From an uncultured Clostridia bacterium (GTDB lineage Bacteria; Bacillota; Clostridia; TANB77; CAG-508), in the NCBI GenBank assembly GCA_947623555.1, contig CANQGW010000002.1, positions 21,746 through 85,745 on the forward strand: DNA of 64,000 nt. The letters run 5' to 3'. The stretch's first letter is position 1; every line of letters begins with the position of its first letter. A model generated the notes under the pieces. The model saw nothing but the letters and a program-made list of their open reading frames with translations. It did not search any database and was not told the origin of the DNA. This document shows, one piece after another, positions 4,357 to 9,102 of the stretch. Both the position numbers and the translations under genes were made by a program.

Positions 4357-5904
4357 TTATTTTTCCTTTGTCATATCTGAAAATTTAAATATTAATTCTT
4401 GCTCACCCATATCATTATCATATCTGCCATCTTTACTAGAATTTGTTATATTAATTTTTATTCCATCTTCTAAAAGCTCTAATGTTCCTTCTCCGCTATT
4501 TCTCCATGTATCTTTATATAAAAATGTATACTTTCCATTTTCATCTAAATGTGCTTTTGCAGAAAAACTTGTGACTTTATGATGGTCATATGTTAAATCA
4601 ATTCTAATTCCAGAGCTACTTGCACTTTCAACAATTAATGAATATCCAAAAGGCTCTTCATTACCAAGATAATTTTGCATTTTAGTTTTATCATATGTAC
4701 CAATATATTTTTTTAATTTTGCATCTATTTCTTCTTTTATTTTATTATTACATTCTGTAATTTTATCTTTACTATCTGCATAATTTCCTAGCTCCTCAAA
4801 AATTACTAATGCTTCGTTATATTTTTCTTCAGCCATTAATTTATTTGCATCTTTATATTTTACTGCAGGAATTATTGTTTTATTAATAATATTAATTCCT
4901 AATATTATGCTAAATAATAAAACTATAAAAATTATAAAAAATATTATTATTTTTTTTCGTTTTTTCTTTTTTTCTTTTGTTTTAGTTTTACTTCCCGTAT
5001 TTTTTATAATGCTTGCAATTTTATTTTTTAAGTCTTCTATAACCCCTATTTTTCCTAAATCAATTGCTTGTAGGTGTGCAAATTCTTCTGGCATATCATA
5101 TGGGCTCATATTTTTATATGTAGGTATTAATATTTTTTGTTTTTCTTGTTTGCATAATGTTAAAAATCTGCTCCATTCATTTCTAACCCATGGCGATTCA
5201 AGGTTTTCTTTTTTTGTTCCTACAGTAATCATTATTTTAGAAGAATTAAGTGCTGAAAAAATATATGGTTCATATTCTGTTCCGAGTTTATTTTCTAATG
5301 TAATTTTAGCAAAAAATACTTTATAGCCTTCTTTTATTAGTATATTATATAAGTCTTGTGCTATAACACTATCTTCAGTTCTACTGCCATTTTCATCAGT
5401 TTCTTTATAGCAAATAAATATATCAAAAGGCTCCTCTTTGTTTGCAATTTCTATTGCATTTTTTTGTATATCATTTATTTTTTTGCCTTCCTCTTCATAT
5501 ACTTTTTTCTCATCATTATCTGCATATTTTAATGCATTTTTATAATTATTATTTATCAAAATAGGAGTAGTGTTTATTCTATTACATGTTGGTATATATT
5601 GCCCCGTTTTTTTATCTTTTACATATTCTACACCATACTCACATAAAGCTAGTTGCCAATATACATCACAGTCAGTACTATTTTCAAGCAAAATTTCCTC
5701 TAATATGGCTATTGCTTTATCGTACTCGTTATTTTCCTTAAAATGCATTGCTCTATCATATAGCCTATTTTGTTTTTCACTTGATGTTTTTGGCAATACT
5801 TGCTTATTTCCACAATACTCACATGTTGCAATTTTAAGGTTTTCTTCAAGCTCTAAATCGCCACCACATATTTTACATTTATATACCATTTTTTTAATCT
5901 CCAC
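4357..5904 (-). CDS. zinc-ribbon/TPR - TIR domain - TM - extracytoplasmic domain protein (paralog 2)
   Basis: N-term CKICGG..CEYCG zinc ribbon; TIR-like core FDIFICYKETDENGSRTEDSVIAQDLY...SPWVRNEWSRFL with conserved Glu; one TM helix; divergent C-terminal domain. Confidence 0.7.
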   Translation of the reverse strand: MEIKKMVYKCKICGGDLELEENLKIATCEYCGNKQVLPKTSSEKQNRLYDRAMHFKENNEYDKAIAILEEILLENSTDCDVYWQLALCEYGVEYVKDKKTGQYIPTCNRINTTPILINNNYKNALKYADNDEKKVYEEEGKKINDIQKNAIEIANKEEPFDIFICYKETDENGSRTEDSVIAQDLYNILIKEGYKVFFAKITLENKLGTEYEPYIFSALNSSKIMITVGTKKENLESPWVRNEWSRFLTLCKQEKQKILIPTYKNMSPYDMPEEFAHLQAIDLGKIGVIEDLKNKIASIIKNTGSKTKTKEKKKKRKKIIIFFIIFIVLLFSIILGINIINKTIIPAVKYKDANKLMAEEKYNEALVIFEELGNYADSKDKITECNNKIKEEIDAKLKKYIGTYDKTKMQNYLGNEEPFGYSLIVESASSSGIRIDLTYDHHKVTSFSAKAHLDENGKYTFLYKDTWRNSGEGTLELLEDGIKINITNSSKDGRYDNDMGEQELIFKFSDMTKEK

Positions 5905-7473: not shown

Positions 7474-9102
7474 TTAATCTAAATCAAGCCAAATGCAAGG
7501 TCTTACTCCATGTAATTTAGTTACAAGATCACCTTCTTCATTTACTTTTCCATTTGTTCTTACATACATAGCCTTTGTTTCATTTTCCCCTTTTTCAGCT
7601 ATCCACCATGCTTTATTTGTATTTTTTAGTTTTTCATATTCTTTTATTTCTTTAGAAGATAGTAAAAAGATAGCATCTTCTTTTTCTGAATCTTTTAATA
7701 TTCTATCTTTTTCATTTTCATCAAAACAGTTATAAAAGTCTTCGTTTAACCATTCTCTTATGCTTGAATTTTCCCAATTTACTGATTTATATTCATTATT
7801 ATATGGCTTCTCATCAATACACTCTTTTGCTATTAATAATACTTTATGTTCTTTTGTATCTAATATTTGCCAAGCAATAGGTTTATTGTCATATTTTCCA
7901 AAATATACAACATCTTTTTCTCCAAATAAATTATATATTTCTATTACTTTATCTTTTGAATCTTTATAATCTGCCAATTGTAAAAATTGTTCAGCAGACT
8001 TTGAATATTCTTTGTTATTATATAACATCATAGCATATTCATATGTTGCTTCTTGAATTTTATCATTACTATCTTTGTAGTCTGGTATTTTTTTATATTC
8101 ATTTATTGCATCACTATACTTACTTTTTTTGTAAAGTTCATCTGCATATTGATAAGTACATTCTTTAATCATGCTGTTACTATCTTTATAGCCGTCCATT
8201 TCTTCAAAGGCTTGCTCTGCCTTACTATATTCTTTATTTTCTAATAATTTGTTAGCTTCATTATATTGTTTATTTGGTGTTATAACTGTAATATAAGCTG
8301 TAATTCCAATAATTATTAATACCACTAATGTAACACTTATAACAGAAACTGTTTTATAATTAACTTCCTTACTTGTAGTTTCTTCTGGCTCTGGAGTTTG
8401 CTTATATAATTTTGCTTTTTTATTACGTTCTGCAATTAGTTTTTGCATATCTAGAATATTTTCTTTTATTGTAGCTTCATTGTTTGCATCTTTTTGAATT
8501 ATTTCTTCTAATTGTTTTTCTTTTACTTCTATTTTATTTTCTACATCTGCCAAAGCTGAATGTGTCATTGGATCACTATATTTTATATTTTCTGACAAAT
8601 CAGCAAATAATTTTTTTAGATTCTCATTTTCTACTTTTTCTGATAATGTATCTACTTCTAATTGTAAAGATTTTATAAAAAATACTTTTTCTTTTACCTT
8701 TTTATCTACCCTTTGAATCTCTTTTGTTCCAAGTCCTACAAAAGTTAATAGTATAGCTGTAATTCCTAATATTATTACATTAATAATTAATGAGGTTCTA
8801 TAGTCTACATTATAAATTAGTTCGGCTCCACTTGCTATACATTGCAATGCAAAATATATCCAAGTAGTCCAAGCTAGTGGTAAATTATTAAATTTTGCCT
8901 GTATTCCTTTTTTAGTTAATGTACATAAAAATACACTACATGCTAATATAATTGAAATCATAGATGATACATAAACTACCCAAAAATTAAGAGTTTTATT
9001 AATTGGTAGTAAAAACATCAATAAGTTAAATATAACTGCAACTATTAATGTAGTACCTAAAATTGCTTTTTTTGAATTCATTATTTTTTCCCCCTTATTC
9101 AT
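7474..9102 (-). CDS. polytopic membrane protein with coiled-coil, YKDS/TPR-like repeats and C-terminal DUF6273-like domain
   Basis: 4 N-terminal TM helices, coiled-coil, fifth TM. Repeats of ..YKDSNDKI.E..Y.YA..LY..KEYS.A...F. C-terminal W..ILD...LLIAKE...W..S.IREWLN..F...GVRPCIWL. Confidence 0.5.
   Translation of the reverse strand: MNKGEKIMNSKKAILGTTLIVAVIFNLLMFLLPINKTLNFWVVYVSSMISIILACSVFLCTLTKKGIQAKFNNLPLAWTTWIYFALQCIASGAELIYNVDYRTSLIINVIILGITAILLTFVGLGTKEIQRVDKKVKEKVFFIKSLQLEVDTLSEKVENENLKKLFADLSENIKYSDPMTHSALADVENKIEVKEKQLEEIIQKDANNEATIKENILDMQKLIAERNKKAKLYKQTPEPEETTSKEVNYKTVSVISVTLVVLIIIGITAYITVITPNKQYNEANKLLENKEYSKAEQAFEEMDGYKDSNSMIKECTYQYADELYKKSKYSDAINEYKKIPDYKDSNDKIQEATYEYAMMLYNNKEYSKSAEQFLQLADYKDSKDKVIEIYNLFGEKDVVYFGKYDNKPIAWQILDTKEHKVLLIAKECIDEKPYNNEYKSVNWENSSIREWLNEDFYNCFDENEKDRILKDSEKEDAIFLLSSKEIKEYEKLKNTNKAWWIAEKGENETKAMYVRTNGKVNEEGDLVTKLHGVRPCIWLDLD

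Follow-up and report, generated by a model that had tools for sequence, protein, structure and literature searches.

To our knowledge, the bacterial TIR systems known so far sense infection from the cytoplasm. The recent expansion of Thoeris includes small polytopic membrane proteins as effectors that respond to nucleotides made by TIR domains, and a study of gut bacteria expressed 152 TIR domains in Escherichia coli, 28 of which were active (Weagley et al., 2022; PMC9092222). Sensors with C-type-lectin domains that are diversified by diversity-generating retroelements (DGRs) and linked to TIR effectors have been described mostly from STAND-NTPase or MoxR/vWA (VMAP) systems of multicellular Proteobacteria and Cyanobacteria, many of them being cytoplasmic (Dore et al., 2024; PMC10907252); these do not include a membrane protein of Clostridia with a zinc ribbon and a TIR domain. 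In Bacillus subtilis, the zinc-ribbon protein and the second membrane protein of YdjGHI recruit a soluble Band 7 protein, which carries a C-terminal zinc finger, for the sensing of envelope stress (PMC8581546; bioRxiv 2026.02.06.704340). In this study, we analysed a 64,000-nt stretch of DNA from an uncultured Clostridia bacterium (GenBank assembly GCA_947623555.1, contig CANQGW010000002.1, positions 21,746–85,745; hereafter the window), in which three intact minus-strand open reading frames (ORFs) within 4357–9102, here called P1, P2 and P3, encode two paralogous membrane proteins, each with a zinc ribbon and a TIR domain, and a third, multi-helix membrane protein. An initial annotation of this region had held that such an architecture is not a described defence or signalling system, and this agrees with the searchable literature, including a survey of TIR divergence and a systematic survey of TIR systems from 2025, where no description of the architecture or of the operon was found. 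The sole public name that we found for the family is 'TIR domain-containing protein'.

P1 (4357–5889, minus strand, 510 aa) and P2 (5894–7444, minus strand, 516 aa) are 62% identical across their first ~287 residues and show no similarity beyond. The shared part begins with a Cys4 zinc ribbon, encoded at 5791–5889 in P1 and at 7346–7444 in P2, with CxxC-14-CxxC at residues 5–26 of both proteins; the four cysteines of P1 (C5, C8, C23 and C26) are invariant in the family alignment A1, and in P2 the motif coincides with modelled beta strands at residues 2–31. It continues with a TPR-like helix pair that scores below the Pfam threshold and with a TIR_2 domain (PF13676, gathering cut-off 28 bits), which scores 46.7 bits in P1 (5053–5421) and 51.4 bits in P2 (6605–6976). 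Each protein then has one strongly hydrophobic transmembrane (TM) helix after a K/R-rich stretch, at 4894–4950 in P1, where it is preceded by KTKTKEKKKKRKK, and at 6467–6523 in P2, where a TM helix is also present in the structural model. Beyond the helix the two proteins are unrelated. The extracytoplasmic part of P1 (4360–4893) opens with one GYADS repeat, of a GYxDS type that matches the repeats of P3 (E 4e-11), followed by a separate domain, and that of P2 (5897–6466) is an alpha/beta domain modelled with a pLDDT of 80–96; neither ectodomain matches any Pfam family. The layout given by the initial annotation, in which both genes have a common N-terminal zinc ribbon and TPR-like segment, a single TM helix and unlike external C-terminal domains, is thus upheld by the CxxC pairs, the 62% identity and the end of the similarity after ~287 residues, the TPR-like pair being sub-threshold. 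The region common to both proteins (hereafter the N-module) is matched by P1 with 504 bits and by P2 with 567 bits in a search with a hidden Markov model (HMM), and full-length orthologs of P1 with 55–56% identity occur in two other loci (L084 and L085). Recent gene conversion between P1 and P2 was ruled out, as the two genes are 71% identical at the DNA level and share no identical tract longer than 23 nt. Another locus (L086, 5701–6324) encodes a 207-aa protein that has an ectodomain of the P1 type (41% identical) and, apart from it, only a TM helix and a GYKDS repeat; therefore, this type of ectodomain also exists without the zinc-ribbon–TIR module.

An AlphaFold2 model of P2, built from 40 family sequences, has a mean pLDDT of 83.5, with residues 157–300 mostly above 85. 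From the N- to the C-terminus, it comprises a four-stranded zinc ribbon, three helices, a beta-hairpin, a long helix, the TIR fold, the TM helix and the alpha/beta ectodomain. A Foldseek search of the Protein Data Bank (PDB) with this model gave as top match the NADase AbTir bound to the NAD analogue 3AD (7uxu, TMt 0.72), and the other matches were to the TIR domains of TRIF, RPP1, RPS4, MAL, MyD88 and SPARTA, all with a probability of 1.00. When the whole model was compared with the PDB and BFVD, only TIR-type matches were found and none for the ectodomain. The family motif WV[KR]NEW (WVRNEW at 5173–5190 in P1; WVKNEW at 6728–6745 in P2) aligns with WCLMEL of flax L6 and with the WxxxE of Brucella TcpB and of a TLR. 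Because the motif falls on these WxxxE sequences, Glu238, whose codon lies at 5176–5178 in P1 and 6731–6733 in P2, is taken as the catalytic-type Glu. Profile, fold and motif agree that the TIR domain of P1 and P2 is a member of the TIR_2 family; both the profile search and the structure prediction matched TIR where either could have spoken against it, and the presence of a TIR domain with a catalytic-type Glu, as had been predicted, is confirmed by a profile score above cut-off, the fold match and the conserved Glu.

The N-module is not peculiar to this organism. A word-indexed search with it returned at least 8000 scored candidates, and all 120 matches listed keep the zinc ribbon, WV[KR]NEW and a precomputed PF13676 assignment. 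An HMMER scan of 1.84 billion cluster representatives (50% identity) gave 7085 matches at E ≤ 1e-3 and 4043 at E ≤ 1e-30, in proteins of up to 3073 aa, and a scan of one genome per species found at least 595 stretches with the N-module, nearly all in uncultured gut or rumen Clostridia, the host families being Oscillospiraceae, Lachnospiraceae, Acutalibacteraceae, Christensenellaceae and Anaerovoracaceae. The relatives of the window proteins come from low-GC uncultured Clostridia of gut metagenomes. Since the N-module recurs at 60–85% identity in thousands of proteins, the features described here are far beyond chance. A phage or prophage origin was ruled out, given that the family was present in only 2 of 2.9 million viral contigs and that the window copy lies in the region of the replication origin; the PHROG matches of the window proteins are to function-unknown families only, by way of their TIR and DUF6273 regions.

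Conservation and topology were counted in 98 full-length members from the scan of species-representative genomes. The catalytic-type Glu motif is present in all 98, the zinc ribbon in 97 and a single TM helix in 77; the Glu is likewise invariant in the family alignments A1 and A2. Most members are longer than P1 and P2, with ~250 extra cytoplasmic residues of TPR/GYKDS repeats before the TM helix. On average, there are 6.4 Lys and Arg residues ahead of the helix and 1.8 behind it. The positive-inside rule holds for each of the 84 members that have at least one TM helix, and a robust N-in/C-out topology follows. On this sequence evidence P1 and P2 are type-II single-pass membrane proteins with the N-module in the cytoplasm and the ectodomain outside, in keeping with the earlier proposal of a cytoplasmic TIR domain and an external C-terminus.

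The external part varies far more than the module to which it is attached. Among orthologs of P2, the median identity is 80% in the N-module versus 46% in the ectodomain, and the best 120 matches carry ectodomains with DUF6273 (37), RCC1 (13), BspA-LRR (7), RHS/YD (2) or PF07603 (1). Tandem same-strand copies of the N-module occur in 21 of 79 loci. Moreover, Avd-like and reverse transcriptase genes lie directly downstream of some family genes of the TIR–TM–DUF6273 type, and pairs of template repeat (TR) and variable repeat (VR) were found in six loci (L006, L018, L025, L029, L041 and L067), the VR being the last ~150 nt of the TIR gene and the TR a copy ~700 nt downstream. TR and VR differ at 12–18 positions per 90 nt, with 0–1 of the mismatches at non-A template sites. 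Owing to this A-specificity, some members of the family are genuine targets of DGRs, which diversify the tip of their external domain. The ectodomain swapping, the 80% versus 46% identity and the DGRs of these six relatives bear out the suggestion that one cytoplasmic module has been combined with diversified external domains. The window itself has no TR/VR-like repeat involving 7474–7845 and no reverse transcriptase or Avd ORF in its 64 kb.

P3 (7474–9081, minus strand, 535 aa) is 50% identical over its full length to a P3-like gene of another locus (L084). Its N-terminal half, encoded at 8392–9081, consists of four TM helices and a cytoplasmic helical bundle, with the conserved motifs KEKVFFIKSLQ, YSDPM and AERNKK, and residues 3–267 match the HMM of a family that we call TM4 (119.7 bits). 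TM4 proteins are typically ~230 aa long and have four TM helices, and their alignment shows the motifs KEKVFYIKSLQ, YSDPMS and AERNRKCK; we found 44 homologs, all annotated as 'hypothetical'. The TM4 model (pLDDT 86.7) likewise has four TM helices and a cytoplasmic helical bundle. A fifth TM helix in P3 (8296–8352) puts the C-terminal part outside, where three to four GYKDS-type, TPR-like repeats (7927–8274), recognized by Pfam search and sequence comparison, precede a DUF6273 domain (7483–7845; 50.2 bits versus a cut-off of 23.5, 3.6e-13) with a C-type-lectin-like ligand-binding fold. The repeats and the DUF6273-like C-terminus are as the initial annotation had them. DUF6273 has been described as C-type-lectin-like, and in gut phages the variable region of DGR targets is formed by its C-terminus (PMC10743442; PMC11792537).

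To see which genes accompany the family, ORFs within 6 kb of family genes were clustered across the 79 loci. A TM4 gene is present in 55 and an SPFH gene in 53 of them, both adjacent to the family genes and on the same strand; the conserved part of P3 is therefore its four-TM N-half and not the DUF6273 end. The SPFH partner is a protein of ~400 aa with a Pfam SPFH Band_7_1 domain and double zinc ribbons. As a rule, the genes are arranged as SPFH, TM4, one small gene in some cases, and the TIR gene or genes, or else TIR, SPFH and TM4, all on one strand. The closest orthologous operons (L084–L087) contain a Band_7_1 SPFH gene, and in the three closest (26–27% GC), where P1, P2 and P3 each have full-length orthologs (50–62% identity), the order is Band_7_1(+SHOCT), a P3-like TM4–DUF6273 fusion and one to three TIR genes. 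Neighbourhood conservation across Clostridia, the lack of which would have told against the system, thus takes the form of co-occurrence with TM4 and SPFH. The window operon is a reduced copy of this widespread Clostridial cluster, without SPFH and DGR; the SPFH gene of this organism could lie elsewhere in its genome.

In 22 loci, unrelated small genes take up the slot that separates TM4 from the first TIR gene; among them are genes for standalone TIR proteins (PADLOC candidate PDC-S66, 1e-40), DUF2971 proteins (PDC-S31, 6e-27), DUF4365 proteins (matched by an Ago-associated REase model) and HEPN pEK499_p136 proteins. In about 13 loci, an XerC/D-like tyrosine recombinase gene is located directly upstream of SPFH. 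The full cluster reads (tyrosine recombinase), SPFH/Band_7_1, four-TM protein, (variable cargo) and one to four genes for proteins with zinc ribbon, TIR domain, TM helix and ectodomain. Among the recombinase loci are L006, L008, L011, L015, L025, L035, L045, L053, L057, L063, L070 and L075, and 9 of these 12 have cargo in the slot, compared with about 12 of 28 loci without a recombinase. This association hints at an integron-like capture of cassettes.

The start of P1 is the ATG at 5889, 9 nt 3′ of a GGAG, since the GTG at 5904 used by the mechanically called ORF sits within that ribosome-binding site, the ATG aligns with Met1 of P2, and gene callers chose the same starts (510, 516 and 535 aa) on identical metagenome contigs; the locus was found in identical form in four independent metagenome assemblies. 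P2 starts at the ATG at 7444, preceded by AAGGGG, and P3 at the ATG at 9081, preceded by GGGGG. Hence P1 begins 4 nt past the stop codon of P2, and of the two overlapping minus-strand genes announced by the initial annotation the strand stands and the overlap falls away. The gaps in the series P3–P2–P1 are 29 and 4 nt, and a hairpin with a 13-bp stem on the stop codon of P1 (4332–4364) is likely a bidirectional terminator that ends the operon. Because of the short gaps, the ribosome-binding sites and the terminal hairpin, P3, P2 and P1 look like a single operon. An extended −10 promoter-like site upstream of P3 (9157–9185, minus strand) is, on weak evidence, likely the promoter of this operon; such sites match at chance frequency in this AT-rich DNA (45 observed versus 45.4 expected). 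The XRE gene upstream (9312–9653), which had been taken for a divergent regulator, is on the same strand as P3 and ends with its own hairpin and T-run before the promoter-like site, and it is consequently a separate unit; as it is also found in only 3 of the 79 family loci, it was ruled out as a partner. The chromosomal origin region (24029–43970) contains gyrA, gyrB, dnaN and dnaA on the minus strand, with mnmG on the opposite, plus strand, and the GC skew changes sign near 37–38 kb; it follows that the TIR operon lies in the core chromosome, ~30 kb from oriC.

Considering these data together, we propose that variable external sensors are coupled to a cytoplasmic TIR module in an outside-in manner, a model to which we assign a probability of about 0.5 and in which the ligand, the clustering, the catalysis and the cellular outcome are what we infer. 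An external ligand, such as a phage particle, a foreign cell surface or an envelope glycan, would bind the ectodomains, and the receptors would cluster in the membrane with the four-TM partner, for which an SPFH protein would serve as scaffold in most genomes. The SPFH family forms membrane-associated oligomeric scaffolds. Clustering would then join the TIR domains and elicit NAD+ cleavage, by analogy with other TIRs; SARM1, plant TNLs, AbTir filaments, SPARTA and TIR-STING are activated by being brought together. The result of cleavage might be NAD+ depletion or a nucleotide signal, for which the four-TM protein is a candidate receiver by analogy with Thoeris, whose effectors include small polytopic membrane proteins, and growth arrest or another protective response would follow. 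P3 would provide the four-TM partner and, in addition, an external lectin-like DUF6273 domain of its own. The defence-type cargo and the link with DGRs favour a role in conflict. That the family makes up a very large, hitherto undescribed class of TLR analogues in gut Clostridia, with swapped and sometimes DGR-hypermutated receptors and a zinc-ribbon–TIR enzyme module working with a four-TM protein on an SPFH scaffold, is a further step that we take tentatively, the odds being somewhat against it.

Several observations weigh against a sensor–TIR role. The isolated TIR domain of EUBELI_RS07950 from Eubacterium eligens gave the product 'None' in a high-performance liquid chromatography assay of E. 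coli lysate (PMC9092222, Table S2). This protein (MGALKCKMCG..., YWGLVLCKYGIEY, WVKNEW) is a clear family member, yet it is only 42% identical to P2 and deviates at family-invariant positions (RTxDS is KTAVS, and ITLExKxG is AALKGKK). The authors caution that isolated TIR domains may give false negatives, and family members from children's gut metagenomes are also present in their Table S1 (PMC9092222). The result weighs against a constitutive activity of the isolated domain, while an activated full-length receptor may still be active. Among the partners, TM4 is matched by no Pfam or NCBIfam model, by nothing meaningful in PADLOC and by no structure in the PDB (best E 0.42), and no recognizable signal-binding effector (SLOG, Macro, SIR2 and so on) adjoins the family genes in the window or the 79 loci. 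PADLOC does not cover the core proteins as a system; P2 has a partial PDC-S66 match (2.3e-8, residues 105–262 only) and P1 none. Neither HMM nor tblastn searches found an SPFH gene or a remnant of one in the 64-kb window, where the XRE gene occupies its position. The window copy lies in the core chromosome among housekeeping genes, and the targets of DGRs in gut bacteria are often plain adhesins. The GYKDS repeats, assumed to be extracellular, occur in long homologs on both sides of the membrane (on average 1.3 cytoplasmic and 1.0 external per protein; for example, residues 440–630 of P0079, and after the TM helix in P0104 and P0043), which is odd for such a repeat. Finally, the closest characterized complex with SPFH/Band_7_1, YdjGHI (SamGHI), handles envelope stress and not immunity, and a composition like that of YdjG/YdjH/YdjI, together with the oriC-proximal chromosomal site, favours envelope signalling.

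Alternatively, the proteins would serve for binding or adhesion at the cell surface, with ectodomains that attach to host glycans, particles or other cells and a zinc-ribbon–TIR part that serves as a non-enzymatic scaffold, docking the adhesins to a TM4/SPFH microdomain for anchoring, sorting or turnover. BspA-LRR, RCC1, C-lectin DUF6273 and RHS/YD are typical surface-adhesin types of gut Firmicutes, DGRs commonly diversify surface-displayed binding proteins, and SPFH proteins organize membrane domains; the inactivity of the EUBELI_RS07950 TIR domain in vitro, the place of the locus in the core chromosome and the stand-alone, TM-anchored P1-type ectodomain without a TIR module point the same way. 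The cytoplasmic module, on the other hand, is hard to account for in these terms, since WxxNEW with its catalytic-type Glu is invariant in 98 of 98 members and the nearest fold is that of an NADase TIR, whereas pure scaffolding TIRs usually keep the catalytic Glu less strictly. A module of ~300 aa conserved at 60–85% exceeds the needs of a tether, and defence-type cargo (TIR, HEPN, DUF4365 and DUF2971) is inserted in the operon. We therefore regard adhesion without catalysis as rather doubtful.

An envelope-stress complex, which we consider unlikely, would follow the logic of YdjG/YdjH/YdjI (SamGHI) of B. subtilis: zinc-ribbon and polytopic membrane proteins would recruit the soluble Band_7_1 SPFH protein, the ectodomains would survey the cell wall or envelope, and the TIR domain would tune NAD-derived signals or physiology without killing. 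The parts are indeed parallel, namely a zinc-ribbon TM protein, TM4, and a Band_7_1 protein with a Gly-rich stretch and zinc ribbons or SHOCT, set against the membrane proteins YdjG, which has a zinc ribbon and for which the primer encodes the N-terminus MIISYKCPNC, and YdjH, and here, too, the genes are chromosomal and lie among housekeeping genes. However, the likeness to YdjG/YdjH drawn here is one of composition, no PspA gene was noticed beside the clusters, and swapped adhesin-like ectodomains, tandem arrays and DGR hypermutation would be unexpected for stress sensors. It might also be supposed that the operon consists of chance or decayed genes, a lineage-specific remnant without coherent function that has lost its SPFH partner, as the 64-kb window contains no SPFH gene or pseudogene and has an unrelated XRE gene in its place. 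This is highly improbable, given that the three ORFs are intact with good ribosome-binding sites and keep all invariant residues, that the identical locus was recovered in four independent metagenome assemblies, and that about one-third of the family loci likewise have no adjacent SPFH gene.

Other features of the window lie outside the operon. Directly downstream of P1, an 891-aa fusion of an ABC ATPase with an FtsX-type (MacB-like) permease is encoded at 1634–4309 on the minus strand. The ABC-transporter cluster that includes this permease is present in 10 of the 79 loci, and the permease also follows P1 in a contig of the same organism (L001); because of this distribution, it is probably a mere neighbour of P1. 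On the plus strand, an ORF with a signal peptide and BspA LRR_5 repeats (9913–10698) and the ORF at 10652–11428 are one surface-protein gene with a frameshift near 10660 (junction ...IDENVF | AGCSNLTIYG...), the second ORF ending in an LPQTG sortase motif and a TM helix. The same split occurs in the independent metagenome contigs L001 and L002. The BspA-LRR neighbour was ruled out as a partner, as it is found in 3 loci and is frameshifted in the window. A 576-aa ORF (17788–19518, plus strand) with a weak match to TrwB/type-IV coupling proteins (36 bits), beside two tRNA genes (17010–17211), may be left over from an integrated conjugative element. Two ORF-poor stretches of 15–16% GC with degenerate A/T-rich short repeats are located at ~20900–21800 and ~46900–49200, the latter directly after two tRNA genes (46697–46903).

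If the sensor–TIR model is true, bacteria would have a new means of perceiving threats or partners, in which an external receptor that can be swapped or hypermutated by a DGR is joined to a TIR domain in the cytoplasm. If the family is moreover a class of TLR analogues, phages or foreign cells would be detected outside, before or at attack, as an outside-in immunity with an adaptive-like, diversifiable repertoire. Since the family is large and often multicopy in dominant gut and rumen Clostridia, its function bears on phage–host dynamics and colonization in the microbiome. The analysis also defines two uncharacterized partners, a four-TM family without a Pfam model and a Band_7_1 SPFH protein, and gives the cellular DGRs of gut Firmicutes a concrete target class.

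PspA–YdjGHI (SamGHI) and the cluster have a parallel composition, namely two membrane proteins, of which one carries a zinc ribbon and the other is polytopic, and a soluble SPFH protein of the Band_7_1 type with a zinc-binding motif at its C-terminus. They differ in that YdjGHI has no TIR domain, variable ectodomains or tandem arrays, while no PspA was seen here and the window has no SPFH gene. The 'antigen sensors' of Dore et al. (2024; PMC10907252) resemble six relatives of P1 and P2 in the DGR-hypermutated, C-lectin-like DUF6273 tip, which is here borne by a TIR protein, and they share with them the idea that a diversified sensor is coupled to an effector of conflict; the difference is that the family described here consists of Clostridial single-pass zinc-ribbon–TIR proteins accompanied by SPFH and TM4, with a window copy that has no DGR.

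With the TIR defence proteins and systems of bacteria (ThsB, SpbK, TIR-STING, SPARTA and AbTir/TcpB), the family shares a TIR_2-type domain, the Glu of WxxxE and a fold closest to that of AbTir, and standalone TIR genes of the ThsB-like or PDC-S66 type are sometimes inserted in its operons. P1 and P2 are not Thoeris components, however, because their scores with NCBIfam ThcB4 (21.3 and 24.3 bits) are far under the cut-off of 220, no PADLOC ThsB model matches them and no ThsA-type effector is encoded beside family genes. Whereas those systems sense from the cytoplasm, the proteins of the present family are anchored in the membrane and have an external domain. The last comparison is with the animal TLR/IL-1R receptors. 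Here the arrangement is reversed, these being type II proteins with the TIR domain N-terminal and the ectodomain C-terminal; they have an extra Cys4 zinc ribbon and helical/hairpin module, keep the catalytic-type Glu, and have SPFH and TM4 partners without a TLR counterpart, and there is no evidence of common descent for the whole architecture. Nevertheless, both are single-pass proteins that combine a cytoplasmic TIR domain with a variable external binding domain, which is an LRR domain in TLRs and a BspA-LRR domain in some members of this family, and in both the working model is activation when a ligand brings TIR domains close together. Should the model hold, the family would represent a striking functional parallel to the TLR/IL-1R receptors of animals.

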